In this document: piece after piece, positions 7,846 to 28,774 of the stretch
How positions within the stretch are numbered: the first letter of the stretch is position 1
Layout: each line of letters begins with the position of its first letter
Made by a program: the position numbers and the translations under genes
Origin: Pseudomonadota bacterium
GTDB taxonomy: Bacteria; Myxococcota; JACRCW01; JAFGSX01
NCBI GenBank assembly: GCA_043821645.1
Contig: JBDRCO010000009.1
Span: forward strand, 1-29,278
Direction of reading: 5' to 3'
Length of the DNA stretch: 29,278 nucleotides
The notes under the pieces: generated by a model
The model's input: only the letters and a program-made list of their open reading frames with translations
Told to the model about the DNA's origin: nothing
Databases searched by the model: none

Positions 7846-9773
7846 TCAGGTGGGAGGCAGGGCCTCATGCCCGGTCTCGCCCACCTCGTAGCCTTGCATC
7901 TGCAGCACCTGCTGGGAGAAGGCCGGGGAGCGGACGATGTCGAGCAGGAGCTGGACCTTGTCGTCTTGAAACACGGCCTCGGGGATGACCAGGTCGTAGC
8001 GCTCTTTGGATATGGGTACGAACTCGAGGTCCAGGGCTGCGGCGGCCGCGGCGATGCCCAGGCCGGCGTCGGCGCGCCCCGAGGCCACGGCCATGGCCAC
8101 GGCCATGTGGGTGTGTTCTTCGGCGGTGTAACCGGAGATGGCGTGAGGCTCGATAGCAGCCTTGCGCAGTTCGAAATCAAACAGGATGCGCGTGCCCGAC
8201 CCAGGCTGGCGGTTGATGAAGCGGCTGTCGGCGCGCGCCAGGTCGGCGACGGTTTGAATGTGCTTGGGATTGCCGCGGGCAACCATGAAGCCCTGCCAGC
8301 GGTGCACCAGGGTGATGAGCCGCACCGGCACCTCGGCGAGGAACTTCTTCACGTCGGCGTGGTTGTACTCGCCGGTCGTCGTGTCCAGCAGGTGGCTGCC
8401 CGCGACGTGGGCCGTGCCACGGGCCAGGGCCAGCAGCCCACCCGTGCTGCCCACGTTGCTCGACGAGATGCTGACGCGGCCCGACGAGGCCTCGAGGATG
8501 AGGCTGGCCAGCAGGTGATGCACAGGTCGTGGGAGCCGATGACCAGCAGCTTGTCGTCGAGGGTGCGCCGGGGCACCAGCAGCTCGATCTGCACAGTGTC
8601 GCCCTGGGAGTAGCCGCTGACCTGCTGCGGTATGCGCAGGATGCCGTCGGCGCGGGTGACCGAGGTCATGGCGCCCGCGCCCCCGGCCAGGGGCAGCGCC
8701 ACCACCTCGTCGCCGATGCGGCCCGCGATGACGCGCACGTGCTCCTCGAGGCCGAGCTTCGAGGGCAGCTTGCGCGCCAGCACCGCGCTCACCTGCGCCG
8801 GGCTCGTCGCCACCGTGCCCTGCAGGGCGGCCAGCAGCGGGGCCACCAGCTCGCGGAAGCACACGATGGCGGACACCGGGTAGCCTGGGATGCCGATCAC
8901 GGGTCGGCCCTGCACCTCGGCGAGCAAGGTGGGTTTGCCCGGCATGACGGCGACGCCGTGGGTGAACAGATCCCCCAGCTCCTGCAACAGTTCGGGCGTG
9001 AAGTCGAGGGCGCCCGCCGACGAGCCAGCGATCACCAGCACCAGGTCAAAGCCCTGGCCCAGGCCCTGGGTCACGGCCTGCTGCAGCGCCTGCCTGTCGT
9101 CGCGCACCGGCGATCCCAGCGTGGCCTCGGCGCCGCACTCGGCAGCCATGGACACCAGCATGGGGCCGTTGACCTCGAGGATCTGCCCAGGCTCGAGAGG
9201 GTCGGGCGCCTGCTCCGGGACCACCACCTCGTTGCCCGTGGGCAGGATCAGCAGTCGCGGCCTGGCGAAGACCTCCACCGCCGTGATGCCCGCCGCCAGC
9301 AGGGCTCCCTGGTCGACGGGGGTCACGGCATGACGGGCGGGCAGCAGGATCTCGCCGCGCACGATGTCCTCGCCGGCCTTGCGCACGTGTTGCCAGGGGA
9401 AGGCCGCCGCTCGCAGCTCCCAGCCCGCATCGACCTGCTCGGCATTCTCGATCATGACCACGGCGTCGAACTCCGCGGGCAAGGGCTCGCCGGTATTGAC
9501 CGGGCGCACGGCCGCCCCGTCGAGGATACGGGGTTGATCGGCCTGCGCGCCGAAGGTGTCGCGTGCGCGCACGGCCAGGCCGTCCATGGCGGCGGCGTGA
9601 TAGGCCGGCACCGAACGCAGGGCCCGCACCGGCGCGGCGAGCACGCGCGCCCGCGCCTCGCGCACCGGCACCGTCTCCACGGTCGTGTGCAGCGACGAAA
9701 ACCTGGCGAGCACAGTACTCCGGGCCTCGTCCAGTGGCACGAGCTGGCGATACATGCGCTTGCGTCTATCCAT
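7846..9773 (-). pseudogene. moeA: MoeA fused to a C-terminal periplasmic-binding-protein-like domain; split by a 1-nt frameshift (genuine or sequencing error)
   Basis: From ATG 9773: AAMDGLAV, ILPTGNE, AGSSAG, VMPGKP, IPGYPVS up to LLVIGSHDLCI. The PBP domain (VGSTGGLLAL, AGSHLLD, INRQPGSGTR, HMAVAMAVASGRADAGLG, ERYDLVI) continues in another frame. The switch is at 8516/8517. Confidence 0.85.
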
Positions 9774-11040
9774 GGGCACGCTCCGCGTCGAAGACCAGGA
9801 CCTCGACCTCGTCTCCCCGGGCGAGGCCCTCGGCCTGCGCGGGTACCACCACCAGGCCATCGGCCTTGACCAGCGACGACAGCATGGCGGATTTTCCGAA
9901 CAGCGGCACGGCCACGCGTCCGTCGTCAGCGCGCTCGAGCCGCACCCGCACGTACTCCTCCTGGCCCCGCGCCGAGTGGATGGAGGTCGCGAGGCGTGCG
10001 CGCACGCGCACACCCAGCGGTCCCTGGCGCAGGGGTTCACCACTGAGGTAGCGAACAAAGGGCAGCACAAAGACCTGGGCCACCACGATGGCCGATACCG
10101 GATGCCCCGGCAGGCCGAACAGGGCCTTGTCGCCGACCCTGGCGACGAGGGTGGGCTTGCCAGGCTTGATGGCCACGCCGTGCACCAGGATCTCGGCCTG
10201 GTCCAGCGACGACACCACCGCCGGCATGAGATCGCGCTCTCCCACCGAGCTGCCGCCCGACAGCACCACCAGGTCCGCCCTGTTCAAGGCGTCCTGCAAG
10301 GCATCGTGCAGGGCCTGCGGCTGATCCTCGACGATGCCACCGTGCTCGACCACGCAACCGGCGGTGCGCAGAAGCGCGGCGACCGAATGGGCGTTGGCGT
10401 CGCGGATCTGCCCCGGCCCGGGCTTCTGGTCCAGGGCCACGATCTCGTCGCCGGTCGACAACACGACAGCGCGAGGCGTGCACCCCACCTCCACCTCGGT
10501 CACACCCAGGGCTGCCAGCAGGCCTATGTCCCAGGGTGTGATGCGCTTGCCCGCTGGCAACAGCAGCTGGCGCGCGCTCACGTCTTCACCGCGGCGCAGC
10601 ACGTTCTCGCCGGCGGTGACAGGTCGGCAGACCTCGAGCAGCGTCGTGGAAGCCTGGTTTGTCTGCTCGACCATGACCACCGCGTCGACACCTTGGGGCA
10701 GGTAGCCTCCGGTGGGGATCTGCACCGCCTGGCCCTTGCCCACGACGAGGGAGGAGCGCTCGCCCATGCGCACGTCACCGATCAGCTGCAGCGGCAGGGG
10801 GAGCGAATCCGAGGCACCAAAGGTGTCGGCGGCCTGCACCGCGAAGCCATCCATGGTCGAGCGGTCCGCGTCGGGCAGGTCCTCGGGTGCCAGGATCTCC
10901 GTCGCCAGCACCCTGTACAGGGCCTCGGCCAGGGCGACCCGCTGCGAGGGCAAGCGCGGAAATGTGCTGAGGGCGCGGCACAGCTCGGCGGGCGTGTGCA
11001 CGCGGAGAAACTCGGTGGGGTGATGCGCGCTCTTCCTCAT
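9766..11040 (-). CDS. moeA: Molybdopterin molybdo/tungstotransferase MoeA (gephyrin-like)
   Basis: RSTMDGFAV, IPTGGYLPQGVDAVVMVE, LSTGDE, SGGSSVGERD, IKPGKP, GLPGHPVS. Confidence 0.96.
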   Translation of the reverse strand: MRKSAHHPTEFLRVHTPAELCRALSTFPRLPSQRVALAEALYRVLATEILAPEDLPDADRSTMDGFAVQAADTFGASDSLPLPLQLIGDVRMGERSSLVVGKGQAVQIPTGGYLPQGVDAVVMVEQTNQASTTLLEVCRPVTAGENVLRRGEDVSARQLLLPAGKRITPWDIGLLAALGVTEVEVGCTPRAVVLSTGDEIVALDQKPGPGQIRDANAHSVAALLRTAGCVVEHGGIVEDQPQALHDALQDALNRADLVVLSGGSSVGERDLMPAVVSSLDQAEILVHGVAIKPGKPTLVARVGDKALFGLPGHPVSAIVVAQVFVLPFVRYLSGEPLRQGPLGVRVRARLATSIHSARGQEEYVRVRLERADDGRVAVPLFGKSAMLSSLVKADGLVVVPAQAEGLARGDEVEVLVFDAERAHG

Positions 11041-11459
11041 CGAGATGGCGTCCCTGTGCTGGAGGTAGTTGCGACGAGAATGCGGTGTCGCCAGCGCTTG
11101 GGGAGGTGAGCGCCGAGCACCGCGATGAAAAAGGCGACGAGCAGGACCCCGGTTGCGATCGTCGGCACCGCGCGTGCGAGCGCGAGCAGGCCAAGCTTGG
11201 CGATCGTGACCCAGCCCGAGAGCTGGCGCAGCAGGTCAGGGTGCGAGGCCCACTCGTGGGCCAGCAACAGCACCCCGCTGGTCGCGGCCAGGACCCACCA
11301 CAGGCCCAAACCCGGAACCCGTCCCCCGACGAGCTGCCCACCGAGGATGGCGGCGCAGGCGGTCAGGTGTGCTGCACGCACCAGCACCGAGCCCACGCGG
11401 GCCCAGCCAGGCAGATTGCGGACACGGCCCTCGGCGGCCCGGCGATCGGTCTCGATCAT
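11037..11459 (-). CDS. Small integral membrane protein (about 4 TM), unknown function
   Basis: 140 aa, hydrophobic segments. Starts 10 nt after the porin stop and overlaps moeA by ATGA. Confidence 0.75.
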   Translation of the reverse strand: MIETDRRAAEGRVRNLPGWARVGSVLVRAAHLTACAAILGGQLVGGRVPGLGLWWVLAATSGVLLLAHEWASHPDLLRQLSGWVTIAKLGLLALARAVPTIATGVLLVAFFIAVLGAHLPKRWRHRILVATTSSTGTPSR

Positions 11460-11468
11460 GCGGCGAGT

Positions 11469-12671
11469 CTAGATCGATATTTGCAGACTGAGCAGCACGC
11501 CGTCGTCCGCCAGGTCGGGCAGGCCTGGCTCATCGGTCTGCCGCCAGATGGCGTCGAGCATCAGCCGCACCAGATCCTTGTACAGGTAGTTCACACCCAC
11601 CGTGATCTCCTGCTGGCTCACCAGCGAGCCCACCTCGTTCCACTGGCTCTGGTACCAGTCATAGCGAGCGGCGAGCTGCAGGTCGTGGTCGGCGGTCAGC
11701 GACGCGGGCAGCAGCGTACCGAGGCTGTCGCGCACGCTCCACAGCAGGCGCAGGTCCCAGCCCTCGTACAGCAGGTCGGCGCGGCCGTCGTTGTCATAGT
11801 CGTCGTCGATGCGGCCACCACCGGCGAGCCCGGCGAGGCGCAGACCCAGCACCGGGATGCGCAGGCGCAGGTCGGCCGAGTAGCTGAGCCGGTCGAGGTC
11901 GTAGACCACCCGGCCGCTGTTGAAGACCATGTTGTCGTGCTTGTTGAGGCTGGCGTGGGCCCCCACCGTGACGACGTCGAACCAGTCGTACAGCTCCAGG
12001 CGCAGGCCGTAAAAGAGCTGTGGCCCGTTGGTCAGGATGTACTGCCGCTCGCTGCTGCCGCCGATGTAGAGGTTGGCGCCGAGTCCATTGCCCGCCATGG
12101 CGAAGTAGCGAAAGCCGCCGTGCCCCAGGTCCACATCACCCTTGAGCGCCACGCCCAGATCCCGGTAGTAGCTGCGGTTGCCATAGAACAGCGACGACGT
12201 GTGCACGCCCCTGGACAGCGCGTAGTCGGCACTCACCCGGGTCAGCTGCGAGCGGTGCGCGAAGTCCAGGTCCCGGCTCAGTACCAGCCCCTCATAGGTG
12301 GTGGGGATCTTCTGCTGGCCCACCTGCACGCGCAAGCAGCGCGCCACGTGAAAGGAAGCAAAGGCGTTGAGAAGGGCGGGATTGCGCTCGAGCTTGAGCT
12401 GCACGTGCAGCCCGACGCGATCGTCGATGAGCAGGTAATCCAGCCCCGCGCGAACCTGGTGCACGGACAGACCCGTGGTCTCGGTGACGCCGAGATCTCC
12501 CGATGGGAACTGGTGCAGAGCGTCCGCCTCCTCGAGCTGCTCGTAGACGGTCGCCCACACCTGGGCATAGGCGTAGGCCTCGAGGCCGTCGGAGAAGCGG
12601 TAGGCCTGGGCCGGCACAGCCAGAATGACTGCGACCACAGCGAGCACGGTGGAGCGGACGACAGGCACCAC
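11469..12671 (-). CDS. Outer-membrane porin (OprO/OprP-like anion porin superfamily)
   Basis: GGAGG then GTG start, signal peptide ending PAQA; LLNAF...VGQQKIP...RDLGV...GNG...ARYD...GVNY motifs typical of Porin_O_P-like proteins; beta-strand C-terminus LSLQISI. Confidence 0.75.
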   Translation of the reverse strand: MVPVVRSTVLAVVAVILAVPAQAYRFSDGLEAYAYAQVWATVYEQLEEADALHQFPSGDLGVTETTGLSVHQVRAGLDYLLIDDRVGLHVQLKLERNPALLNAFASFHVARCLRVQVGQQKIPTTYEGLVLSRDLDFAHRSQLTRVSADYALSRGVHTSSLFYGNRSYYRDLGVALKGDVDLGHGGFRYFAMAGNGLGANLYIGGSSERQYILTNGPQLFYGLRLELYDWFDVVTVGAHASLNKHDNMVFNSGRVVYDLDRLSYSADLRLRIPVLGLRLAGLAGGGRIDDDYDNDGRADLLYEGWDLRLLWSVRDSLGTLLPASLTADHDLQLAARYDWYQSQWNEVGSLVSQQEITVGVNYLYKDLVRLMLDAIWRQTDEPGLPDLADDGVLLSLQISI

Positions 12672-12712
12672 GGCGCCTCCCGGTTGCTTGGATCGACGCC
12701 AGCGGGTCACGC

Positions 12713-13945
12713 TCAGGGCACCACGCCGTGTCCGTAGACCACCACCGCGTCCTGATAGATCAGGGCCCAGCCGTCGTTCTTGGCGTCGAAGTCCTCGACA
12801 CCCTCAGGCAGAGGGTCGACGCGGATGGCGACCACGCCGCGCACCATGGCGCCGGCGTTGTGGTCCTTGCTGGCGTCGTAGTCCCAGCCGTCATTGCAGG
12901 TGGTCGGCGAATAGCTGGAGCCGCGGTCAGGCCCGCCCGCCGTGCTCTGCGGCACCACTGCGCGCAGGGGCCCCTCACCGTTGATGCGGCCCGAGCTGGG
13001 ATCCAGGTTGACCGGCTGCATGGCCTCGCCCTCGCGCTGGTGCGCCAGCAGCAACCACTGCGCATCGGGGATGGCCGCACCGTCGATGAGACCTGTGGGC
13101 AACTGGTCAGGGTAGGTGACGAAGTTGCACTCAGCGTTGCCGAGGTTGTCGAGGCCAGCGTGGTAGATCCCGTCGGGGTACTGCCTCTTCACGTCATCGA
13201 TGGAGAAGGTGGTCACGTAGCCGTCGGGCGCGATCATCGACAGCCCCGTGATGGCCGTGTCGTCGAGGTTGACCCCGGCGTCCTGCAGCAGGTCGCGGAC
13301 GCGCACGCCCGTGTACTGGGCATAGTTGTCAAACTGCTGGCGGTTGGAGTTGCACAGCAGGAACTCGGTGTGCTGGGGCAGGGCCTGCAGCGCCGCCCGG
13401 GTGTAGATCCGGTTCGGGGCCACGGGCTGCCCTGGCATGCTGCCCGGATCCCCCGGGTACTTGAGGTCCGCGATCTCGGTGGCGTTGCTGTGCCCGTCGC
13501 CGTCGGAGTCCCGGTCCGCGATCTGCAGCGGCGCCCCGCGGTTGCGGCCGGCGTTCTTGTAGTCGAGGCCATAGGGATTGAGGGTCTCGGCATAGGTGGT
13601 GGGCGTGGGCTCGATGAAGATGGCCGTGCCCGGGTGCTGGATCAGGTGGCAGTAGTCGCAGGCGTTGACGTAGACCTCGCGGATCTGGCCGCTGGAGTCG
13701 TAGCTGAAGGTGTCGCCCTTGTGGCAGGTCTGGCAGTCGTCCAGGCGCGTGCCGAGAAGCGCCGGGTAGGCGGTGACCAGGTTGTTGGCGTCGAGGTCGC
13801 TCTCGTGGCCCTTGTAGGAGCGCGAGGAGAGCAGGCCCTGGTCCCTGTCCTTCGCCGTGTCACAGGCCGCCCCGGGCAGGAGCAGGAGCGAGGGCAGCAG
13901 CGCCACGAGCAGGGAGCAGCGACGGGGCCAGTGAGCTTGGATCAT
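12713..13945 (-). CDS. Diheme c-type cytochrome lipoprotein with a GEGP motif and a C-terminal sulfite-oxidase/MsrP-like domain
   Basis: Lipobox LLLPGAAC; CQTCH (13721-13735) and CDYCH (13646-13660); DSDGDG Ca-binding-like loop; LLCNSN...YTGVRVRDLL...APDGY...GEGPLRAVVP. AGAGGAAGGG before ATG 13945. Confidence 0.85.
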   Translation of the reverse strand: MIQAHWPRRCSLLVALLPSLLLLPGAACDTAKDRDQGLLSSRSYKGHESDLDANNLVTAYPALLGTRLDDCQTCHKGDTFSYDSSGQIREVYVNACDYCHLIQHPGTAIFIEPTPTTYAETLNPYGLDYKNAGRNRGAPLQIADRDSDGDGHSNATEIADLKYPGDPGSMPGQPVAPNRIYTRAALQALPQHTEFLLCNSNRQQFDNYAQYTGVRVRDLLQDAGVNLDDTAITGLSMIAPDGYVTTFSIDDVKRQYPDGIYHAGLDNLGNAECNFVTYPDQLPTGLIDGAAIPDAQWLLLAHQREGEAMQPVNLDPSSGRINGEGPLRAVVPQSTAGGPDRGSSYSPTTCNDGWDYDASKDHNAGAMVRGVVAIRVDPLPEGVEDFDAKNDGWALIYQDAVVVYGHGVVP

Positions 13946-13955
13946 GTCCCTTCCT

Positions 13956-14642
13956 CTATTGTTGCGGCCGGGCGCAGGGAGCATCGTCGACGATGTTCCC
14001 ATCCCGGAGTTCAAGGCGCCGATGCGCCAGGTGTTGTACAAGATCGTGGTCGTGGGTGGCGAGCAGCACCGCGGAGCCAGCGGCGGCGAGGGTGCGCACG
14101 GTCTCCATCACGGCCAGACGGTGCGGTGCGTCCAGGTCGCGAGTCACCTCGTCGAGCAAGAGCAGTTCAGGGCGCAGCACCAGCGCCCTGGCCACGGCCA
14201 CCGCCGTTCGCTGACCACCAGACAGGCGCGCGACATCGCTGCGTGCCAGGTCTGTCAGGGCCAGGGCTGACAGCACCTGCGACACACGTGCCGAACGTTC
14301 GGGGCCGGGCACATGCCGCAGGCCCAGGCCCCAGCTCAGGTTGCGCTCGACGCTGCCCCTGAGCAGGTAGGGATCCTGCAGGACCAGCACCGCGCGCTGA
14401 CGAAAGGCGACCGGTGCCGGAGCCGGTCCGCCGTGCAGCGATCCATCGTCGAGGACGACCGTTCCCTCGGCGACGTCGCACAGTCCGGCGCAAGTCAGCA
14501 GCAAGCTGCTCTTGCCGCTGCCGTTGGGGCCGCACACGGCGGTGATGGAGCCGGCGGTGAGCTCGAGCGCGGGCACCTGCAGCACGAAGCCCGCGCCTCG
14601 CTTCACCTGCAGCGCCTGGCAGCGGAGCAGGGGCGCGCTCAT
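13956..14642 (-). CDS. tupC: Tungstate ABC transporter ATP-binding subunit
   Basis: Walker A GPNGSGKS, signature LSGGQR, Walker B LLLLDE, H-loop ATHD. ATG 14642 overlaps the tupB stop (ATGA). Confidence 0.88.
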   Translation of the reverse strand: MSAPLLRCQALQVKRGAGFVLQVPALELTAGSITAVCGPNGSGKSSLLLTCAGLCDVAEGTVVLDDGSLHGGPAPAPVAFRQRAVLVLQDPYLLRGSVERNLSWGLGLRHVPGPERSARVSQVLSALALTDLARSDVARLSGGQRTAVAVARALVLRPELLLLDEVTRDLDAPHRLAVMETVRTLAAAGSAVLLATHDHDLVQHLAHRRLELRDGNIVDDAPCARPQQ

Positions 14643-15334
14643 GACGCCTTCTCGACCCGCGGCTGGCGCCAGGCCAGCAGCAGGTTGACGCCCAGGGCGA
14701 TGATCAGGAGCACCACGCCCATAGCCACACCGCGGGCGAACTCGCCCTTGCCGGTCTCGAAGGCGATGCCGGTGGTGATGTTGCGGGTGTGACCGCGGAT
14801 GTTGCCACCCAGCAGCATGGCCGCGCCGACCTCGGTGAACACCCGGCCAAAGCCCGCAGCGACGGCGGCCACCAGTGCGGCGGCGTGCTCCTGGGCGACC
14901 AGCAGCGACGCACGCCAGCGACTGGCGCCCAGGCTCAGGGCGGTGAGCTGAATGCGCGGATCGGCCTGCTCCAGGGCGCTGCTGGCAAAACCGATCATGA
15001 TGGGCGTGGCGAGCACGGCCTGGCCCAGCACCATGCCCGGGATCGCGTACAGCAGCCCGAGATCTCCGAGCAAGCCCTGGCGACAAAGCAACCCGTACAG
15101 CACCAGCCCGACCAGCACTGTGGGCAGCGACATCGAGGCCTGCACCAGGGTGCGCAGGGCGTGGCGTCCGCGAAAGCGGCCCAGGCCCAGGGCCACGCCC
15201 AACGGCAGGGCGATGAGCGCGCTCAGCACGCAGGCGGTGAGCGACACGCGCAGGGACACGCCTATGGGGTGCCAGACATCGACGTCCAGCGACAGCAGCA
15301 TGCGAAAGCCGTCGACGAGGCCTGAGAGGATCAT
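14639..15334 (-). CDS. tupB: Tungstate ABC transporter permease
   Basis: SLPTVLVGL, GLLGDLGLLY, GFGRVFTEVGAAMLLGGNIRGHTRNITTGIAFETGKGEF, typical of TupB. Confidence 0.93.
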   Translation of the reverse strand: MILSGLVDGFRMLLSLDVDVWHPIGVSLRVSLTACVLSALIALPLGVALGLGRFRGRHALRTLVQASMSLPTVLVGLVLYGLLCRQGLLGDLGLLYAIPGMVLGQAVLATPIMIGFASSALEQADPRIQLTALSLGASRWRASLLVAQEHAAALVAAVAAGFGRVFTEVGAAMLLGGNIRGHTRNITTGIAFETGKGEFARGVAMGVVLLIIALGVNLLLAWRQPRVEKAS

Positions 15335-15367
15335 CGCCTGACCTGCCCCTCCCGGGTGGCTCCGGGT

Positions 15368-16252
15368 TCACGGCATCGAGGGCGCACTCGCGGCGGCGGG
15401 CTCGGTGCTGCCAGATTTCTTCACCGGATCACAGCCCGACACCAGGTGAAACAACGGCTTTTTCTGGGGCTGAAAACCCGCGATCAGCTCGAGTCCTGTT
15501 TTCGAACTCAGCCAGGCCACCAGGGCCAGGGCCGCCACGTGGTTGACGCCCGGGTGCTTGACCGGATCCACGGCCATGACGCTGTACAGGTTGTCCAGGC
15601 GCGGGTCGCCCTGCACCAGCACCTCGAGCTGCAGCTGGCTGGCGGCCGTATCGTAGGTGGCGCGGTCGCTCAGGCAGTAGGCCTGCTTCTCGCTCGCCAC
15701 GCCCAGGGTCATGCGCATGCCCTGGCCGGCTTCCAGGTACCAGGCGCCCTGGGGCGTGATGCCGGCCTGCTGCCACAGCGCCTGCTCCTTCATGTGGGTG
15801 CCGGACTTGTCGCCGCGCGAAACAAAGACCGCCTGCTTGTCGGCGATGATCTTGAGGGCGGCCGCGGCGTCGCTACCACCGCGCAGGCCCGCGGGATCGG
15901 TCGACGGACCCAGCAGCACGAAGTCGTTCTTCATCAGGGTGCGGCGATCCGTGCCGTGACCCTCGGCCATGAACGCCGCCTCAGCCTCGGGCGCATGCAC
16001 CAGCACCGCGTCGACGTCACCACGTGCGGCCAGGGCCAGAGCCTGGCCGGTGCCCACGGCCATCACCTGCACCTGGAGGCCGGTGCGCTGCTCGAAGGGT
16101 GGCAGCAGGACCTGGAGCAAGCCGGTGTTGTCCACCGAGGTGGTGGTGGCCAGGCGCAGGGGGGCGGGGGGCGCCTGTTTCTGTGCACAGCCGAGCACAG
16201 CCAGCCCGGTGACGACGAGAATCGCGAACCTCGCGACCGCAGAATGTGTCAT
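15368..16252 (-). CDS. tupA: Tungstate-binding lipoprotein
   Basis: Lipobox AVLGC; LRLATTTSVDNTGLL (TTTS tungstate signature), VGTGQAL, DAVLVHAP, SRGDKSGTH, LSDRATY. Start 16252 or 16261. Confidence 0.94.
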   Translation of the reverse strand: MTHSAVARFAILVVTGLAVLGCAQKQAPPAPLRLATTTSVDNTGLLQVLLPPFEQRTGLQVQVMAVGTGQALALAARGDVDAVLVHAPEAEAAFMAEGHGTDRRTLMKNDFVLLGPSTDPAGLRGGSDAAAALKIIADKQAVFVSRGDKSGTHMKEQALWQQAGITPQGAWYLEAGQGMRMTLGVASEKQAYCLSDRATYDTAASQLQLEVLVQGDPRLDNLYSVMAVDPVKHPGVNHVAALALVAWLSSKTGLELIAGFQPQKKPLFHLVSGCDPVKKSGSTEPAAASAPSMP

Positions 16253-16306
16253 GACGTCCATTTCGCTTCTCACATGCGAGTGGCGACAGCAAAGCGTTGA
16301 GCCCGC

Positions 16307-18421
16307 CTATGCGCTCGACGCCGCGCCCGGGGCGTTCGCATCGAGCTCCCGGTCGCAACGCAGGCAGCGCGATGCCTCGCACCGGGCGACCTCCTCGGTC
16401 ACGACCTGTTCGACCTCGATCACCGAGGTCCGGCGCTCGACTGCGGAGAGGTGTGGCACGCTGAGGCGCGCTGCGCAGACTGTGTCTTTTCGGATGGGCT
16501 GCGCAGGCGAGGGCCCCAGGTCCCTTCCGGCGCGGGCGCCGTCTCCGGGCTGGGCCAGCGCCTCGCCGACGAGGAAACGCTCGATCGTATGAGCGGCCCG
16601 CTTGCCGGCGGCGATGGCCTCGATCACGGTGCTGGGGCCGGAGACCGCGTCGCCTCCGGCGAAGACCCCTGGGCGGCGAGTGGCGTGGGTCCGCAGATCG
16701 GCCTCGATGGCTCCCCAGTCGTTGGCCAGGGTCTCCCGCGCGTCGGCGCCCGGTGCGCGCAGGCTGTCCAGGTCAGGCTTCTCGCTCACCGCCACGATCA
16801 AGGTGTCGAGCGGCACCAGGTGCTCGGTGCCCGCCATGGGCACGGGGCGGCGGCGACCACTGCGGTCGGGCGGGCCGAGTTCGTTCTTCAAGCAGGTGAC
16901 GCCGACCAGAGCACCGGCGGCCGTCTCGACCTTGACCGGGGTCAACAGGCAGCGCAGCTCGGCGCCCTCGTCGACCGCAGCATCGATCTCCTCGGCAAAG
17001 GCCGGCATCTCCTCGCGGGTGCGGCGGTACAGAATGGTCACCTGCGACACCTCGGGCTGTCTGAGTGCGATGCGCGCCGCGTCGATGGCCGAGTTGCCGC
17101 CGCCTATGATGCCGACCCGGCCCTTCGCCAGGCTGGTCCCCTTCAGGTTGAACTCGCTGAGGAAGCGCAGCGAGGGGATCACCCCCGACGCGTCCTCGCC
17201 CTTGATGTTCAGCGGCAGACTGCGGTTGGACCCGAAAGCGAGGAACACGGCGGCATGGCCGTCCTCGAGCAGTCCGTCGACGGTGATGTCGCTGCCCAGC
17301 CGCACACCCGTCTTCACGGTGATGCGCGGGTCCAGCAGCGCGGCAATCTCGCGGTCGAGCACGTCGCGGGGGAGGCGGTACGACGGGATCGCGTGCCGCA
17401 GCATGCCCCCGAGCTGCTCGTTCTGCTCGAACACGGACACCCGGAAGCCGCGCAGGGCGAGCAGGTGCGCCGCGCTCAGCCCGGCCGGCCCCCCACCGAC
17501 GATCGCCACCCGCTGCTCCTTGTCGTCCGCGGCGCGCTCGGGCTGGTACACGCCGGGATCGATGGTGTCGGTGACAAAGCGCTTGAGGGCGCGGATGGCG
17601 ACCGGCGAGCCCTCCACCGTACCCAGCCGGCAGCTGCGCTCGCAGCGGTGATCGCATACCCGGGCGCACACCGACGGGAAGGGGTTGGGATCGCGAATGG
17701 CGAGGTAGGCCTGCTCGTACTCGCCGCGCTCGATGTGTGCGACGTAGCGCCAGGCCTCGGTGCCTATGGGGCAGGCCAGCTGACAGGGCGCGGTCAGCGG
17801 ATCCAGCCCCGGTGGCCCCACCAGCTTGTCGGTGATGAGCGCGTCGACCACGGCGCTCGCCTGGTCGCTGGCAAAGAACTTTTCGATCGCCTCGACCTGG
17901 CGCCTGGGTGGCTGCAGCTTCTCGCGCTGTACCAGCTTGATGTAGGGGACCAGCTGGTTCAGTCGCTCCACCCCTTTCTCGACGGCCGAGGGCTCGTCCG
18001 CTGTGCCGTGGCGCCACGGCCCGAGCGCTTTCACCTGCTTTGCAAACTCGGTCATGATCTCGGCGTAGCGAGTTCCCTCGGAGGCGCCGACCCACTCGAT
18101 GCGCAGCCGCTCGGGCGCGACGCCAACGCGGTCGAGCAGCATCTTGCCCAGGTGCACGTTGCACAGGGCATCGAAGTTGCCCTCGGTGACGTAGTGGCAT
18201 TCGCCGGGCCAGCAGCCGGCCACGATCACGCCGTCAGCCCCGTGGGCAAAGGCGCGCAGCACGAAGGACAGGTCCACCCGTCCCGTGCACATCACGCGTA
18301 TGATCCGTATCTCGGTCGCGTACTGTTGTCTGGAGACCCCAGACAGGTCTGCTGCCGAGTACGCTCACCAGTGGCACAAGAAGGCCACGATGCGCGGTGA
18401 GAACTCGAGTTCCGTCGTCAT
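16307..18421 (-). CDS. bamF: Selenocysteine-containing BamF/MvhD-like Fe-S domain fused to a GltD/NfnB-like FAD/NAD(P) oxidoreductase (704 aa)
   Basis: GAGAGGAAACC then ATG 18421: MTTELEFSPRIVAFLCHW-U(TGA 18365-18367)-AYSAADLSGVSRQQYATEIRIIRVMCTGRVD...GCWPGECHY. Then PCQLACP, NPFPSVCARVCDHRCERSC, VGGGPAG, IGGGNSAID, YRRTREEMPA, FAGGD and C-terminal EASRCLRC. Confidence 0.9.
18318..18367 (-). promoter_or_regulatory. Putative bacterial SECIS hairpin immediately 3' of the Sec UGA
   Basis: mRNA reads UGA GCGUACU CGGCAGCAGACC UGUCUGG GGUCU CCAGACA AC AGUACGC. Lower stem GCGUACU/AGUACGC and upper stem UGUCUGG/CCAGACA with a G-starting loop (alternative pairing AGACC/GGUCU). Confidence 0.75.
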
Positions 18422-18456
18422 GGTTTCCTCTCACTTCCCTCGAACGTCAACGTGGA

Positions 18457-18571
18457 TGGTGTTGATTCATCTTGTTGTGGGGGGCCCAGGCGACACTTTT
18501 TTCCGAGCCTGCGAGGACAAAAAGAGTCGCCGGTGAAGGCGGGGCCCCACAACCTGTTCGAATCAACACCA
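18457..18571. repeat. Long nested inverted repeat in the bamE-bamF spacer
   Basis: 18457-18468 tggtgttgattc / 18560-18571 gaatcaacacca (12/12); 18474-18482 gttgtgggg / 18545-18553 ccccacaac (9/9); 18489-18501 ggcgacacttttt / 18519-18531 aaaaagagtcgcc (12/13). Confidence 0.85.
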
Positions 18572-18598
18572 CGTCGTGCACGTGTGGGCCTGCTCTTC

Positions 18599-21500
18599 CT
18601 ACGCCCGCATCAGCGCGGCGTCGATCTGGGCGTTGAGCTCATCGTCGGTGAAGTGCTTGAGCTGGATCGCATGGGTCGCGCACTTGGCGTTGCACAGGCC
18701 ATCGCCCTTGCACAGCACCGGGTTCACCTTGGCCTTCTTTCCCCTCGGCGTGTCCACCAGAGTGATCGCCGCGTAGGTGCAGGCCGTGATGCAGGCACCG
18801 CAGGACACGCAGGCGTCCTCGTCGACCAGGCACACCGAGCCCGAGGCCTTGACCGTGTCCTGGGACAGCAGGGTGGCAGCCCGACCGGCCGCGCCGTAGG
18901 CCTGGCCCAGGGTCTCGGTGAGGTGCTTGGGGTAGTGCGCGCTGCCGCACAGAAAGACCCCGTCGGCGGCGAAGTCCACCGGCCGCAGCTTGACGTGGGC
19001 CTCCTGGTAAAAACCATCGGGATTGGTGGCCACCTTGAACAGCTTGACCACCTCGGCGCTGCTGGCCGCCGGCACCACGGCTGCGGACAGCACCAGCAGG
19101 TCTGCGTCGAGCTCCAGTCGTTTTTGCAGCACCGGGTCGGGCACGCGAACCTTGAGCACCGATCGCCCGTCCTCGCCTGTGCCGGGCTCGACCTCGGGTC
19201 CGTCGTCGGGCACGAAGCGCACGAAGCGCACGTGCTGCTCGGCGGCTGCTCGGTAGTGGTCCTCCTGAAAGCCGTAGGTGCGCATGTCCCTGAACAGGAT
19301 GTCGATGCTCAGCTCGGGCCTGAGCGCCTTGAGCGCCAGGGCGTTCTTCACTGCCTGGCCACAGCACACGCGGGCGCAGTAGTTGTGGTCGGCGTTGCGG
19401 CAGCCCACGCACTGGATCATCACCAGGCTCTGGGCCTGCTGCAGCTCCGGCGCCCCGTCGGCCAGGCGCTGCTCCAGCTCGAGCTGGGTCAGCACCCGGG
19501 GATCCTCGCCGTACAGGTACTCGTGGGGTCTGTACTCGTCGGCGCCCGTGGCCAGGATGGCCGCGCCGTGCTCGATCACCTGCTCGCCGCTCTCGTGCAG
19601 GACCGTGGATACCCAGTTGCCGATGTAGCCGGTGACCTGGCGCAGCGTGGCCTGGTGGTACACGCGGATCAACTTGTGCTGGTAGACCTTGCGGATCAGG
19701 CCCTGCAGGTAGGCCTGCACGTCGAGACCCTCGAGAGTGCGGTGCAGCCGTCGCGCCATGCCACCCAGGTCTTTTTCCTTCTCGACCAGGTGCACCTCGA
19801 AGCCCTGCTCGGCCAGACCCAGCGCCGCGGTCATCCCTGCCACGCCGCCGCCCACCACCAGGGTGGCCTTGTTCACCGGCAGGTCGAACTCCTGCAGGGC
19901 CTCGAGGCCGCTGGCGCGGGCCACGGACATGCGCACGATGTCCATGGCCTTCTGCGTGGCCTCCTCCTTTTGCTTGGAGTGCACCCACGAGCAGTGCTCG
20001 CGGATGTTGGCCATGTCGAAGAAATACTGGTTGATGCCGCCCTCGCGCAGGGTGTCGCGAAACAGCGGCTCGTGGGTCTTGGGCGTGCAGGCGGCCACGC
20101 ACACGCGATTGAGCTTCTTCTCGCGAATGGTCTTCGAGATCTGCTCGGCGGCGTCGGTGGAGCAGATGAACAGCCCCTCCTCGGCGTGCACCACGTGGTC
20201 GAGGCCCTTGGCGTACTCGACCACCGAGGGCACGTTGACCACGCGGCCGATGTTGGCGCCGCAGTGACAGGCGAACACCCCGACCCGCGGTTCCTCCTCG
20301 CTGACGTCGCGCTCGGGCGGGTAGATGCGCTCCTTGGCCAGCTTGCCGCGGCGGTAGCCAAGCAGCTCGCCGACCAGCGCATGGGTGCCGCTGGCGGTCA
20401 TCACCGACTCGGGGATGTCCATGGGGCCGCAAAAGGCGCCGCTCACGAACACGCCCGGACGCGAGGTGGCGATGGGGTTGGTGGGCGGGGTCTGGCAAAA
20501 GCCATGGGCGTCGAGCGCGATGCCGAAGCGGTCGGCGATGGCACGCGCGTCGCGCGGCGGAATCAGGCCCACGCCCAGCACCACCAGGTCGAAGGTGTCT
20601 TCCTTCACGCCGACGTCGTCGGTGGCGTAGCGAATGGTGACGTTGTGGGTGTCGGGGTCCTCGCCGCTGACCGCGACGTAGCTGCGCACGAAGGTCACCC
20701 CGCTGAGCTTCTCGGCGCGCTGGTAGAAGCGCTCGAAGTCCTTGCCGTAGGAGCGGATGTCGTTGTGGAAGATCGTCGCCTCGGCGTCGGCGTCGTGGTC
20801 CTTGGTCAGGATCACCTGCTTCTGGATGTAAGAGCAGCACACCGACGAGCAGTAGCTGTTCGCGCCCTCGAGGATCTGGCGCGAGCCCACGCAGTGTATC
20901 CAGGCGATCTTGTGCGGGTGCTTCTTGTCCGAGGGCCTGAGGATCTCGCCCTCGTGAGGCCCCGTGGCGCACAGCAGGCGCTCGAAGTCGAGGCTGGTGA
21001 CGACGTTGGGATAGGTCCCGTAGCCGTAGTCACCGCGCGCCGCCGGATCGAAGGTCGAGATGCCCGGCGACAGCACGATGGCGCCGACCTTGAGGGTTCG
21101 TTTCTCGGGCTTCTGGTGCAGGTCGATCGCGTTGTTCTTGCAGGCGCCGACGCAGATCGAGCACTTCTCGTCCTGCAGGTACAGGCACTTGTCGTCGATG
21201 TAGGGCACCAGGGGCACGGCCTGCGAGAAGTAGATGTGCACGGCCTTGTTGTCGCCCAGGTTCTGGTTGAAGGGATCCGGGATCTTGACCGGGCAGTACT
21301 CGACGCAGACCGTGCAGCCCGTGCACAGGTCCTCGTTGACGTAGCGGGGCTTCTTGGTCAGCGAGACCTCGAAGTCGCCGGCCTGGCCCGCGACGCTGTC
21401 GACCTCGGTGTAGGTCAGGATCTCGATGTTGGGGTGGCGGTCGCACTCGATGAACTTGGGTGACTCGATGCACATCGAGCAGTCGTTGGTGGGGAAGGTC

Positions 21501-21655
21501 TTGTCGAGCTGCGCCATCTTGCCGCCGATGGTGGGCGCCTTCTCGACCAAGAAGACCTTGAAGCCGGCGGTGGCGAGATCCAGCGCGGCCTGGATGCCGC
21601 TGATGCCGCCGCCGACCACCAGCACGTCGCCGAAGTTCTGCTGGGCCTCGCTCAT
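18599..21655 (-). CDS. bamE: HdrA-like flavo-iron-sulfur subunit of class II benzoyl-CoA reductase (1018 aa)
   Basis: ATG 21655 overlaps the bamD stop. VVGGGISG, AQLDKTFPTNDCSMC, HCVGSR...YCSSVCC, CHCGANI, ACTP, NIREHCSWVH, second FAD motif VGGGVAG, EAHVKLRPVDF, ferredoxin CVSCGAC/CKGDGLC; lies after bamBCD. Confidence 0.93.
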   Translation of the reverse strand: MSEAQQNFGDVLVVGGGISGIQAALDLATAGFKVFLVEKAPTIGGKMAQLDKTFPTNDCSMCIESPKFIECDRHPNIEILTYTEVDSVAGQAGDFEVSLTKKPRYVNEDLCTGCTVCVEYCPVKIPDPFNQNLGDNKAVHIYFSQAVPLVPYIDDKCLYLQDEKCSICVGACKNNAIDLHQKPEKRTLKVGAIVLSPGISTFDPAARGDYGYGTYPNVVTSLDFERLLCATGPHEGEILRPSDKKHPHKIAWIHCVGSRQILEGANSYCSSVCCSYIQKQVILTKDHDADAEATIFHNDIRSYGKDFERFYQRAEKLSGVTFVRSYVAVSGEDPDTHNVTIRYATDDVGVKEDTFDLVVLGVGLIPPRDARAIADRFGIALDAHGFCQTPPTNPIATSRPGVFVSGAFCGPMDIPESVMTASGTHALVGELLGYRRGKLAKERIYPPERDVSEEEPRVGVFACHCGANIGRVVNVPSVVEYAKGLDHVVHAEEGLFICSTDAAEQISKTIREKKLNRVCVAACTPKTHEPLFRDTLREGGINQYFFDMANIREHCSWVHSKQKEEATQKAMDIVRMSVARASGLEALQEFDLPVNKATLVVGGGVAGMTAALGLAEQGFEVHLVEKEKDLGGMARRLHRTLEGLDVQAYLQGLIRKVYQHKLIRVYHQATLRQVTGYIGNWVSTVLHESGEQVIEHGAAILATGADEYRPHEYLYGEDPRVLTQLELEQRLADGAPELQQAQSLVMIQCVGCRNADHNYCARVCCGQAVKNALALKALRPELSIDILFRDMRTYGFQEDHYRAAAEQHVRFVRFVPDDGPEVEPGTGEDGRSVLKVRVPDPVLQKRLELDADLLVLSAAVVPAASSAEVVKLFKVATNPDGFYQEAHVKLRPVDFAADGVFLCGSAHYPKHLTETLGQAYGAAGRAATLLSQDTVKASGSVCLVDEDACVSCGACITACTYAAITLVDTPRGKKAKVNPVLCKGDGLCNAKCATHAIQLKHFTDDELNAQIDAALMRA

Positions 21656-22824
21656 GGGCGGACCTCCAGCGCGGCCTGCAGCACTTCGGTGATGTCCTGG
21701 ATCTGCAGCGGGTCGTCCTCGGCGAGAGACAGCCGGGCCTCCTCGAACATGCTGATGCAGTAGGGGCAGCTGGTGACCAGCACCTCGGCACCGACCTGCT
21801 TGGCCTGGGCGATGCGCAGGTTCGAGAAGCGCTCCTGTTTGGGAGTCTCCATCCAGATGCGCCCGCCACCGCCGCCGCAGCACAGGCTGTTCTCGTGGTG
21901 GTCGCGCATCTCCCGGCGCTGCAGCCCCGGCACCGCGTCGAGCACCGCGCGCGGCGCATCGAACACCTTGTTGTGCCGGCCCAGGTAGCAAGGGTCGTGG
22001 TAGGTGACGGTGCGCGGGAACTCCCCGGCGAGCTTGAGCCGGCCGCTGGCCAGCAGCTCGGCCAGCAGCTCGGTCATGTGCACGACCTCGAAGTGCACCA
22101 TGAACTCGGGGTACTCGTTCTTGAAGGTGTGCAGGCAGTGCGGCGACGAGACCAGGATCTTCTTCACCCCGCGGTCGATGAAGGTCTTGATGTTGTCCTT
22201 GGCCAGGTTCCTGAACACCGCCTCGTTGCCTGTCTTGCGGATGCTCTCGCCGCAGCAGTTCTCCTGGTTGCCGAGGATGCCGAAGGACACCCCGGCCTTG
22301 TGCAGCAGCTCGACGGTGGCCCGGGCCACTTTGCGCATGCGCGGGTCGTAGCTGTAATAGCAGCCGACGAAGTACAGCAGCTCCATGTCGTCGGTAAAGG
22401 GCTTGACGTCCAGACCCGCGGCCCAGGCGTCGCGCTGCTCGCGCTCCTCGTTCAACGGGTTGCCCTGGGTGCCCAGGCTGGCGGCGGCGCTGCGCACCCC
22501 GCGGGCGCTGCCCGGGAACACGTCGTACTCGGCGGCGACCCGGCGGATGGCGACCCCGACCTCGATCTGCTCGACGCCACGCGGGCATTGCGCCGGGCAG
22601 GTACCGCAGGTGGTGCAGCGCCAGACATCCTCGAGTTCGATCTCGGCCAGGCCGTAGCTGGCCTCGCGCACGATGCGGCGGATGCTGAAGTCGCGCACGC
22701 GGTTCCAGGGGCAGACCACGTCGCACTTGCCACACTGGTAGCAGTACTTGAAAGCCTCGCCGCCGGCCTTGCGGATCTCCTGGGTGATCTCAGCGAGAGG
22801 GGCAACAGTCTCCAAGTTCTTCAC
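21652..22824 (-). CDS. bamD: HdrD/GlpC-like Fe-S (CCG domain) subunit
   Basis: CYQCGKCDVVCP and CTTCGTCPAQCP ferredoxin motifs; YFVGC, NCCGE, SPHC, YHDPCYLGR, CCGGGGG, SCPYC. AAGGGAG then GTG 22824. Confidence 0.92.
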   Translation of the reverse strand: MKNLETVAPLAEITQEIRKAGGEAFKYCYQCGKCDVVCPWNRVRDFSIRRIVREASYGLAEIELEDVWRCTTCGTCPAQCPRGVEQIEVGVAIRRVAAEYDVFPGSARGVRSAAASLGTQGNPLNEEREQRDAWAAGLDVKPFTDDMELLYFVGCYYSYDPRMRKVARATVELLHKAGVSFGILGNQENCCGESIRKTGNEAVFRNLAKDNIKTFIDRGVKKILVSSPHCLHTFKNEYPEFMVHFEVVHMTELLAELLASGRLKLAGEFPRTVTYHDPCYLGRHNKVFDAPRAVLDAVPGLQRREMRDHHENSLCCGGGGGRIWMETPKQERFSNLRIAQAKQVGAEVLVTSCPYCISMFEEARLSLAEDDPLQIQDITEVLQAALEVRP

Positions 22825-23002
22825 CAGCTCCCTTGCGGTTCGAATCAACCAGGCGCAGGCGATTGCAGGCTGCACCCGTTGCACGTGGCTCGGGGTCCTG
22901 TCACCTCACCTCCCCCACCGTGCTCGTCCCTGCGCGCGGCGGGGGGCCCCCTGCTCGGCGCCACCCCTCGCGTCCGGGGCAGCACCGACGAGCATTCCCA
23001 CG

Positions 23003-23545
23003 CTACTTCTTGTTCATGCGCTTCATGGCGTCGCGCACGGTGTCCCAGCCATGCTTGTTGGCCAGGGCTTCGAGGCCCACGTCGACGTCCTCGGGGGCCT
23101 CGTCGTGCACGACCTCCTCCTCGCGCTCCTCGTAGATCAGGGCTTCGGCCAGGCACCACTGCACGCACATGGGTGTGTCCAGGGAGGGATCGCTCTCGCA
23201 CATGTCGCACTTGAGGGGCAGGTCCGAGTCGGGCTCCTTGAACAGGTCCCGCGACGGACACGAGGCCCGGCAGAACGCGCACTCGCCGTACTTCTTGCCG
23301 TCGATGGTGTACTGGTCGCGCCCCGCGCACTCGGCCGCCGTGTACTCGCCGGCGTAGACCGGGATGTAGATGTCGGCCAGGGGGTCGCGCACCACCCGGA
23401 TGCGCGAGCGCGCCGGGTTGTTGCAGCTGTAGGCCGGCGACGCGTGCATGGACGAGCAGATCACCTCGCAGGCCTGGCAACCGTTGCACTTGTCGACGTC
23501 GATCTTGATGGTCTTGATCGTCTTCTTGGTCTTTTGGGACTTCAC
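23003..23545 (-). CDS. bamC: Class II benzoyl-CoA reductase 4Fe-4S subunit
   Basis: IKIDVDKCNGCQACEVICS, NPARSRIRV, AGEYTAAECAGRD, ECAFCRASCPSRDLFKEPDSDLPLKCDMC, CVQWC, matching recalled BamC. GTG start overlaps the bamB stop (GTGA). Confidence 0.93.
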   Translation of the reverse strand: MKSQKTKKTIKTIKIDVDKCNGCQACEVICSSMHASPAYSCNNPARSRIRVVRDPLADIYIPVYAGEYTAAECAGRDQYTIDGKKYGECAFCRASCPSRDLFKEPDSDLPLKCDMCESDPSLDTPMCVQWCLAEALIYEEREEEVVHDEAPEDVDVGLEALANKHGWDTVRDAMKRMNKK

Positions 23546-25521: not shown

Positions 25522-25586
25522 GTCTCCACCTGTCGGAGATTCACCGTGCCTCGGCACGGCCTGTTTTCGCCCTCGAACGATTGTCG

Positions 25587-26934: not shown

Positions 26935-28764
26935 CTACATGCCTTCGTACAGGTCACCGGCGGCCCAGTCGTAGGTGTCCGAGGTCGATCGACCCGAGCC
27001 ACCGCTCACCACCGAGCTCGGCCCATTGGCGATGTTGCCGCTGCCGCCCGCGACGGCTGAATAGGTCGATCTGGCTTCATTCTGGTCTCCCCCCAGGACC
27101 GCGGAGCTCTCGGCGGAGGCAAGGTTGTCATACCCGCCGACGACCACGGCACGTTCACCCCGGGCGTCGTTGTTATTGCCGCCGACCACCACCGCCGCGA
27201 GTCCATAGCCGCTGTCGTTGGGCCCGCTCTTGTTGCGGTACCCGCCGACGATGGCGCTGTCGATGCCGTAGGTGATGTTACCGTAACCCGAGCTCGCTCC
27301 CCCTCCGGCCAGGATGGCCGAGGAGCTCCCGAGGGCTCGGTTCCAGCGGCCACTGACGACCACGGAGTGCTGCGCCTCGGCTTTGTTGTGCGAACCACCC
27401 AACACCGCGGAGGAGGTCCCGGAAGCTTCGTTCGCCTCCCCGCCGCCCAGCAACGCGAAGCGGCCCGAGCCAACGTTCTGGTATCCCGCCAGCACGACGC
27501 TGCCCTCGCCCACCGTGCGGTCGAAGCCAATTCCCGAGCCGGCCAGGTTGTCCCGGCCGCCCACGACCACGCTGTAATCCGCCCAGGCCTGGTTGCCCAT
27601 GTAAGCCTGATCAGAACCCCCTCCCAGCACCGCCGAGGTGGCGCCGCTGGCGCGGTTGTTGCGGCCACCTGCCACCACGCTCCCCGCACCGCTGCCCACG
27701 TTCCACATGCCGCCGAGGACCACCGCCACCTGTTCCGTCGCGGAGTTGGCGTAGCCTCCGAGCACCGAGCAGGAGGCGTCGCGGATGCTGTTCAGCTGTC
27801 CGCCGACGATGCCGCCATTGGACGTGTAGTTGTGCTTGGGGCCGACGACCAGGTTGTGGCTGCCGCTCTTGTCCGAGGCGCCCTGGCCGTCCGCGCTGAC
27901 CCGCGCCTCGTCGTAGCCGAGGATCAAGTTGCCGGTGCCGTTGGCGCCGCCGATGGTGCTGCCCAGGTTGTTGACGATCTGCACGTTGACGCCCTCGAAG
28001 CGCAGGGTGTTGCCGAGCACGCGCAGGCTGTCGGTCTTGGTCTCCACGGCCACGACGCGCTGGTCCAGGTGGTGCACGCTGTCACTGGTGGCGTAGCCCG
28101 CCAGCTCGGCCGCGCCGACCGGATCGGCGGGCAGCGCGGCGATGGCGTCGGTGACGGTGCCTATCTCGACCGCGTGGGTGCCCAGCGTCGCGCTGTGGTC
28201 GACCAGGGTGGCGCTGTGCCCGGCCACCTGGCCCTCCAGTGCGGCGATGCGCGCCAGCAGAGCATCCACCGCGCCCTGCAGGTTGTCCGCGGCCAGCCCG
28301 CTGCCGCTGTTGTCATAACCCACCTCGGTGGCCACCGGCAGAGCTCCGCCGCTGGCCAGCTCGGCCGCGCTCAGCCCCTCGAGCGTGTCGGCGTCGCCGG
28401 CATGCAGGGCGTAGGGCACGCTGCCCAGCGGCAGGCGCGGCAGCAGCACCTGGCTGCCCACCGTGACCTGCAGCCAGTGATCGCTGCCGTCGAGGAAGGT
28501 ATCGAGATCACCGGCGCTGTTGAGCGGCACCTCGAAGTGGCCGTCCTGCACGCTCACACTGTCGTGTCGCTCGCTCCACAGCGCAGTGCCTCCGCTGTTC
28601 TGGTCGAACAGCTCGAACAGCAGGTCCGCGCTCATGCTGGCCGGTGCCCCGCCGTCGGTGAGGTAGCCGGTGTAGTACAGGTGCTGCGGAACCGCGGCGC
28701 GGACTCCACTGCTGATCAGCGCAGCTGCGAGCACGGTCGAGAGCAGGGCGATGCGAGAGTACAT
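26935..28764 (-). CDS. Secreted fibre/adhesin-like protein with coiled coil and Gly-rich ~15-aa repeats (609 aa)
   Basis: Signal peptide MYSRIALL...VRA; N-terminal YTGYLTD...ALWSE...WLQVTV...LPR..SVPYA domain; heptad stalk; repeated SxVxGGxxNxAxG units. Confidence 0.75.
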
Positions 28765-28774
28765 GGTGAGTCCC

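Follow-up and report, generated by a model that had tools for sequence, protein, structure and literature searches.

PruR, which binds a small pterin in the periplasm of Agrobacterium and other Proteobacteria, has a sulfite oxidase (SUOX) fold that lacks the Cys of that family (PMC11194511). It consists of a single exported domain of about 140-150 residues without heme (PDB 7kos, 7kou, 7kom, 7kp2 and 7rkb), and its partner is the cyclase DcpA. The SUOX systems SorAB, SorT and SoxCD have a c-type cytochrome as redox partner; in SorAB and SoxCD the cytochrome is a chain apart from the subunit with the molybdenum cofactor (Moco), and the Cys that ligates Mo is invariant. Periplasmic SUOX enzymes, like other periplasmic molybdoenzymes, are loaded with their cofactor in the cytoplasm and exported by twin-arginine translocation (Tat), whereas c-type hemes are attached after export by the general secretory (Sec) route, and this is the reason that SorA and SorB, or SoxC and SoxD, are separate chains. 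The present analysis concerns a lipoprotein with a SUOX fold and two c-type heme motifs in one Sec-exported chain, without the ligand Cys, together with the outer-membrane porin encoded next to it. Both genes lie on contig JBDRCO010000009.1 (assembly GCA_043821645.1) of a bacterium placed by GTDB in the Myxococcota; the whole stretch of 29,278 nucleotides that was analysed is called the window below.

Other described systems are also relevant to this pair. OprO and OprP are phosphate/pyrophosphate-selective porins (Pfam PF07396). For the known TupABC system, no outer-membrane or heme component has been described in the open-access literature searched. Conduits of the MtrAB or Pcc type are defined by a multiheme cytochrome (eight or more hemes) threaded through a large barrel. 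The lipoprotein itself belongs to a family that has a database name, "GEGP motif-containing diheme protein" (NCBIfam NF041762), and no assigned function; no paper on this family, or on its pairing with a porin, was found in the open-access literature.

The lipoprotein (12713-13945, minus strand, 410 residues; GEGP below) does not differ from NF041762 in any defining feature. It matches at 448.2 bits (E 2.2e-134, cut-off 300) over model positions 1-358 of 359, and it has two CxxCH motifs and the GEGP motif, in agreement with the earlier note on this DNA, which had described GEGP diheme proteins as a family without known function. At least 1439 homolog clusters were found at E <= 0.001 among 8000 candidates scored, with 501 representatives at 50% identity and the same E limit. 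The record titles name metagenome-assembled genomes (MAGs) of Myxococcota, Desulfobacterales, Planctomycetota, Gemmatimonadota, Latescibacterota, Poribacteria and others.

GEGP, the porin (11469-12710, 413 residues, an OprO/P-family anion porin-like protein by PF07396) and a small membrane protein (11037-11459, 140 residues) are three co-directional genes on the minus strand, read in that order. They are spaced 10, 2 and 9 nucleotides apart, counting from the end of tupC upstream, and the last of them overlaps moeA by 4 nucleotides. The layout in the earlier note, tight genes between tupABC and moeA, is thus correct in its coordinates, its spacing and its flanking genes (a TupA-like protein, a permease and an ATPase on one side, two MoeA genes on the other). 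The ATG of the GEGP gene, at 13945, is preceded by the Shine-Dalgarno-like AGGAAGGGA, and a simple scan of the minus strand from about 8000 to 15800 showed no terminator-like site.

The pairing of GEGP with a porin is conserved well beyond the window. Neighbourhoods were counted by phmmer on stop-to-stop open reading frames (ORFs), with one genome per species and up to 8 kb on each side of GEGP; the sample contains 77 loci, some of them from MAGs labelled Anaeromyxobacter or Desulfobacterales, and the GEGP match was recovered by ORF search in 76. An OprO/P-type porin gene is adjacent in 50 of the 76, directly downstream in 37 and directly upstream, with the order swapped, in 13. A TonB-dependent receptor is encoded directly upstream of GEGP in 2 further loci. 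Neither channel adjoins in the remaining 24, and in 10 of these the contig ends within 1 kb of the GEGP gene on one side or both; with these 10 set aside, an outer-membrane channel adjoins GEGP in 52 of the 66 loci that can be assessed. The GEGP lipoprotein and the OprO/P-type porin are therefore a conserved two-gene cassette, which in this organism is inserted in a tungsten island between tupABC and moeA. The earlier note had treated the small membrane protein as a third member of the unit, a grouping that the counts do not bear out: its relatives occur in just 3 of the 77 loci.

The partner porins are OprO/P-family proteins of about 375-465 residues. Those encoded upstream of GEGP, mostly in loci of Desulfobacterales type, match PF07396 over its full length (positions 2-370 of 370, 1e-38), which links the porin partner of this type to OprO and OprP. 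The neighbours of the window porin are tungstate genes rather than pst or pho genes. Five Arg are invariant in 26 porin sequences, which is suggestive, and only suggestive, of anion selectivity as judged from the alignment. A complex prediction of the porin (37-413) with GEGP (29-410) and two hemes gave a score of 0.01 against a mark of 0.32, which is no evidence either way. A TonB-dependent receptor in the porin's place beside GEGP was seen in L054 and L055 (also L047 and L077; L and G numbers denote loci and genomes of the samples). At another locus (L044:10456-12413) an ExbB-ExbD-TonB set directly follows the GEGP-porin pair.

Genes of tungsten and molybdenum (W/Mo) metabolism are frequent around the cassette. 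In the same 76 loci, tupA, tupB or tupC is present in 23 and a regulator of HTH_17+PBP_like architecture in 21; one or the other occurs in 38, so that TupABC or the HTH-PBP regulator shares the operon or locus of GEGP in about half of the cases. This architecture we take to be that of TunR. AOR-family genes occur in 7 loci and moeA in 5, and any W/Mo gene in 44. As a check of its reading, the earlier note had named co-occurrence with tupABC, moeA and bamB and association with the porin and membrane genes; the porin and tup parts of this are borne out, whereas moeA, the AOR family and the membrane protein are rare companions. The tupABC genes are in one gene string with GEGP in the window and in six other loci (L031, L001, L009, L011, L027 and L037). 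In the first of these six, from a Poribacteria MAG, the gene order is as in the window and a riboswitch for Moco or the tungsten cofactor (RF01055, L031:5151-5276, 76.9 bits) precedes the tupABC-GEGP-porin string.

The association is also seen at the level of whole genomes. In a sample of 401 genomes from the phylum of the window, 12 carry full-length GEGP with a score over the family cut-off (G000, G002, G013, G023, G045, G051, G061, G086, G101, G243, G265 and G282), and 44 have a TupA homolog, defined as a match to the window TupA at E <= 1e-30. TupA is present in every one of the 12 GEGP carriers and in 32 of the 389 other genomes, a contrast that kinship among the carriers inflates (see below). 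The two genes are often on separate contigs in carrier genomes. Conserved neighbourhood and co-occurrence with TupA both support the link to W/Mo oxyanion acquisition that had been proposed from the window alone, and it is secure that GEGP and an outer-membrane channel form a conserved unit tied to tungstate uptake and its regulation.

GEGP starts with a Sec-type lipoprotein signal peptide (13862-13945, minus strand, translation MIQAHWPRRCSLLVALLPSLLLLPGAAC) that ends at the lipobox Cys28 (LLPGAAC). The lipobox Cys is aligned in 108 of 120 close homologs, the remainder having gaps, and a strict Tat motif is present in 1 of the 120. Residues 36-176 (13418-13840) form the N-terminal diheme domain, with a DSDGDG acidic loop. 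The two heme motifs that had been noticed in the sequence are CQTCH (13721-13735) and CDYCH (13646-13660); both are kept, together with the GEGP motif, which in the window has the form GEGPLR, in 120 of 120 close homologs. His47 (117/120) and His362 (120/120) are conserved to a similar degree and may be the distal heme ligands.

Modelled alone, the N-terminal domain reached a predicted local distance difference test (pLDDT) score of 90.5. No solved structure matched this domain (best Foldseek E 2.1, best VIA Z 2.3), which does not by itself make the fold new, and there is a sub-threshold match to Temptin_C. Partial NF041762 matches (model positions about 44-129) were found in ORFs of 275-489 codons in nine genomes (G014, G072, G082, G087, G113, G119, G228, G321 and G323), and therefore the heme/acidic-loop module is also part of other proteins, ones that lack the SUOX-like domain. 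A different extension of the architecture is seen in two homologs from loci of Desulfobacterales type (L050:7866-10283 and L061:7752-10199), which carry seven EPTP repeats at the C-terminus (PF03736, E 1e-82 to 1e-86); this addition is probably a beta-propeller.

The C-terminal half of GEGP has the SUOX fold (residues 176-385; 12791-13420, minus strand). The full-length model has a pLDDT of 81, and a VIA structural search against representatives returned ten SUOX-family entries covering model residues of about 176-385. The Z scores were 13.2 for SorT and SoxC, 12.2 for PruR 7rkb, 12.0 for SorA and for PruR 7kp2, 10.3-10.6 for chicken sulfite oxidase and 8.8 for YedY, with 4.7 for the first unrelated entry; SoxC and SorT superpose with a root-mean-square deviation of 2.2-2.7 over 121-122 residues. 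Foldseek placed PruR chains at the top (E 8.2e-05) and sulfite oxidases next. Profile comparison agrees: when SUOX domains from the genomes of 15 relatives (31 rows, 29 distinct) were aligned by hhalign with 21 diverse GEGP C-terminal domains, the probability was 97.4% (E 1.2e-11, 109 columns). The sulfite oxidase-like character that the earlier note had read from a few motifs is in this way borne out by structure and by profile. The SUOX domain family PF00174 scores only 19 bits (E 0.0011), below its gathering cut-off of 24, and the SUOX dimerisation domain has no match in the lipoprotein. A full-length profile gave 0 matches to solved structures at E up to 10; the C-terminal profile gave marginal ones only (PruR 7kom, E 0.018), amid chance matches to globins and binding proteins.

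The same alignments locate the metal-ligand position. The SUOX Cys, invariant in 31 of 31 rows, is placed by hhalign on Ser200 (13346-13348), directly after the invariant Asn199, and in the weak HMMER alignment to PruR 7kom the Trp of PruR that is equivalent to the Cys also falls at Ser200. Residue 200 is Ser in 96, Ala in 16 and Thr in 8 of the 120 close homologs; in 69 distant homologs Thr (28), Ala (20) and Ser (8) occur there. The Cys that had been taken for the metal ligand is Cys198 (13352-13354), which precedes position 200 by two residues. Only 15 of the 120 close homologs have it, with Ala (73), Ser (17) and Val (12) also occurring there, and the distant homologs have mostly Met or Leu, with Cys outside the six commonest residues. 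Because position 200 is Ser, Ala or Thr and Cys198 is sporadic, the GEGP family is without a conserved metal-ligand Cys.

These residues bear directly on whether GEGP could be a periplasmic oxidoreductase with heme and Moco or a tungsten cofactor, in effect a SorAB or SoxCD fused into one chain and served by a dedicated porin for its substrate. The need for the cofactor would then explain why tup and moeA are close by. SoxC and SorT are the best structural matches to its SUOX fold, the G-P-R motif of SUOX is retained as GEGPxR, moeA adjoins in the window, and the window Cys198 is on the same strand as the ligand position and only two residues from it. A classical Moco enzyme is nevertheless unlikely, because the ligand Cys is not conserved and because a Sec/lipoprotein signal with c-type hemes, not a Tat signal, is found. 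With Ser, Ala or Thr family-wide at the ligand position, PF00174 below threshold and a strict Tat motif in one homolog of 120, this kind of enzyme, which the earlier note had offered in the form of a heme-pterin oxidoreductase with a Cys ligand, is very improbable.

Other parts of the domain are strongly conserved. D206, Y208, D241, G242, an aromatic residue at 243, Y278, G325-P326-x-R328, D340 and N363 vary hardly or not at all, distant members included, and GEGPxR (GEGPLR, 12962-12979 in the window) aligns with the G-P-R motif of SUOX. A conserved pocket is therefore likely; the putative pocket residues are D206, Y208, D241-G242-aromatic243, Y278, G325-P326-x-R328, D340 and N363, with the near-invariant H362. 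In its degenerate SUOX fold without the Mo-ligand Cys, and in being exported, GEGP resembles PruR. It differs in the added diheme domain, in having Asn-Ser/Ala/Thr where PruR has Pro-Trp at the ligand position, and in being encoded with a porin rather than with the DcpA cyclase.

The likeness to PruR raises the possibility that GEGP is a periplasmic redox or signalling protein with a pterin pocket and hemes, which would report or use excreted pterins and would merely be co-regulated with W/Mo genes. PruR chains are the top Foldseek matches with VIA Z scores of 12.0-12.2, the pterin-contact LNDY of PruR falls on the invariant PDGY of GEGP (in the weak HMMER alignment, E 0.018), and PruR itself binds pterins in the periplasm (PMC11194511). 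However, no DcpA-type partner was seen among the recurrent neighbour clusters or the neighbours scanned, the conserved partner is an outer-membrane channel, the Pro-Trp of PruR is replaced, and PruR has no hemes. As the whole function of the cassette, a pterin role is unlikely.

The function favoured here is that the GEGP-porin cassette provides the first stage, at the outer envelope, of tungstate (W/Mo oxyanion) uptake by anaerobes, with a probability of roughly 0.55. The porin would let the anion through the outer membrane. The lipoprotein, which probably faces the periplasm, would hold a ligand in its cofactor-less SUOX-type pocket and move electrons via the two c-type hemes, and the metal would then reach TupA in a form that TupA can bind. 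The pocket may bind an oxyanion, a thio-oxyanion or a small pterin, and redox chemistry may serve to condition the metal species. A more specific and tentative version makes GEGP a metal-conditioning enzyme. Its pocket would take W/Mo species that TupA cannot, e.g., the thiotungstates of sulfidic water; the hemes would oxidise them or strip their ligands, tungstate would be released beside TupA, and the porin, or in certain lineages a TonB-dependent receptor, would import the raw species. This version is possible, though we would not bet on it.

Several observations weigh against a front end for tungstate. Because tungstate resists reduction, it is not evident what two hemes would do with WO4(2-) itself. 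The substrate may therefore be a thio-form or a complex of W or Mo; alternatively, a small pterin may occupy the pocket, as one does in PruR. The window porin matches PF07396 at 36.9 bits (E 3.2e-09, cut-off 20.9) only at its C-terminus, over residues 344-401, about the last 58, and a channel gene beside GEGP is missing from 14 loci whose contigs extend far enough on both sides. No W/Mo gene was found within the scanned DNA at 32 of the 76 loci; where neighbours were scanned (10 of these 32 and two tungsten-linked loci without an adjacent porin) they were unrelated housekeeping genes. The riboswitch of the Poribacteria locus is the only one in 17 related loci scanned, eight loci of Desulfobacterales type having none, and an Rfam scan of the window gave no match at the gathering score, hence no riboswitch. 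The co-occurrence of GEGP with TupA is inflated by kinship, because just 4 taxonomic families account for all 12 carriers, and one of these, in which 16 of 18 genomes have TupA, contributes 8.

Some of the same facts would suit a periplasmic redox enzyme for another anion, an oxyanion of S, Se, As or P, with its own porin, the tungsten neighbourhood then reflecting shared ecology. The 32 loci without a nearby W/Mo gene are consistent with this, as is the frequent position of the cassette alone among unrelated genes, and the closest structural relatives act on sulfur anions. The gene strings shared with tupABC in the window and six other loci argue the other way, as do the Moco/tungsten-cofactor riboswitch, the HTH-PBP regulator in 21 of 76 loci and the presence of TupA in all 12 carrier genomes. 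Another anion as the substrate thus appears doubtful.

The combination of a cytochrome gene and a porin gene also recalls an electron conduit, and the window contains a Bam-like tungstoenzyme cluster (16307-25557, minus strand). This cluster comprises an AOR-family, BamB-like gene (23542-25557), an HdrA-like gene (18599-22735) whose product of 1378 residues has three HdrA-like matches as well as Fe-S domains, and a gene (16307-18295) for an NAD(P) oxidoreductase to which a FlpD/MvhD domain is fused. On these grounds the cassette could be thought a porin-cytochrome conduit or, as the earlier note had suggested, a high-potential route by which electrons leave the Bam complex, the benzoyl-CoA reductase whose genes lie upstream. 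Neither fits the features of the pair. GEGP has two heme motifs only, and the porins paired with it belong to the OprO/P family, at about 375-465 residues, so the definition of an MtrAB or Pcc conduit does not apply. The Bam complex is cytoplasmic, and an AOR-family gene is near GEGP in just 7 of 76 loci. A role of this kind is hardly credible.

The small membrane protein (11037-11459, minus strand) has about four hydrophobic segments and no Pfam or NCBIfam match; in the Atlas only unnamed clusters match it, and a large protein collection contains three close homologs. Homologs start at MPGW, and therefore the ATG at 11459 may precede the true start by about 26 codons. The 3 GEGP loci (of 77) that have a relative all come from MAGs labelled Gemmatimonadota or Longimicrobiales, with a MoeA-PBP fusion gene on one side of it and GEGP on the other. 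By profile search it occurs in 24 of the 401 genomes of the phylum, of which only two (G000 and G282) also have GEGP, on a different contig in the latter. Within 1.5 kb of the small membrane protein at 24 other loci (L079-L103), moeA was found at 14, an AOR-family gene at 5, the HTH-PBP regulator at 2, tupA at 2 and none of these at 6. The small membrane protein is a companion of moeA/AOR tungstoenzyme genes and stands outside the GEGP cassette; the quinone-side partnership with the lipoprotein that had been proposed for it is not supported. Of the three His residues to which attention had been drawn in or near its helices, two (H31 and H118) are kept in all of 7 sequences, whereas H68 varies.

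The remaining genes of the island lie on the same strand, and every gene from 18295 down to 7846 is on the minus strand. Upstream of GEGP are tupA (15368-16273; Pfam PBP_like_2, best NCBIfam match TupA NF041772 at 213.6 bits, under its cut-off of 400), tupB (14639-15334, an ABC permease, BPD_transp_1) and tupC (13956-14642, an ABC ATPase, ABC_tran). Downstream are moeA (9766-11040; MoeA_N, MoCF_biosynth and MoeA_C) and a MoeA-PBP_like fusion gene (NF011068; Pfam domains including PBP_like) that is split over two frames, 8349-9773 and 7846-8862. Positions 3-431 of NF011068 map to the first of these ORFs and positions 432-642 to the second, with the frame change near 8502-8510; this is either a one-base indel of the assembly or a genuine pseudogene. 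Elsewhere in the window two long ORFs on the minus strand have no Pfam match at E <= 1e-4, one of 669 residues (26935-28944) and one of 479 residues (1301-2740).

What is new here is a GEGP-porin pair that shares a single gene string with tupABC, with two moeA genes and with a tungstoenzyme cluster of Bam type. A direct alignment, moreover, puts the position of the lost Mo ligand at Ser200, and the small membrane protein is set apart from the cassette. The analysis provides a functional lead for a named family without known function, in which the SUOX fold is reused without the cofactor ligand and fused to c-type hemes. The cassette is a testable candidate for the passage of tungstate or molybdate through the outer membrane and for a step that would act on the metal before TupA or ModA binds it. 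If GEGP does condition the metal, an outer-membrane step and a redox step would be added to tungsten acquisition, and this would be the second non-Moco use of the sulfite oxidase fold, PruR being the first.

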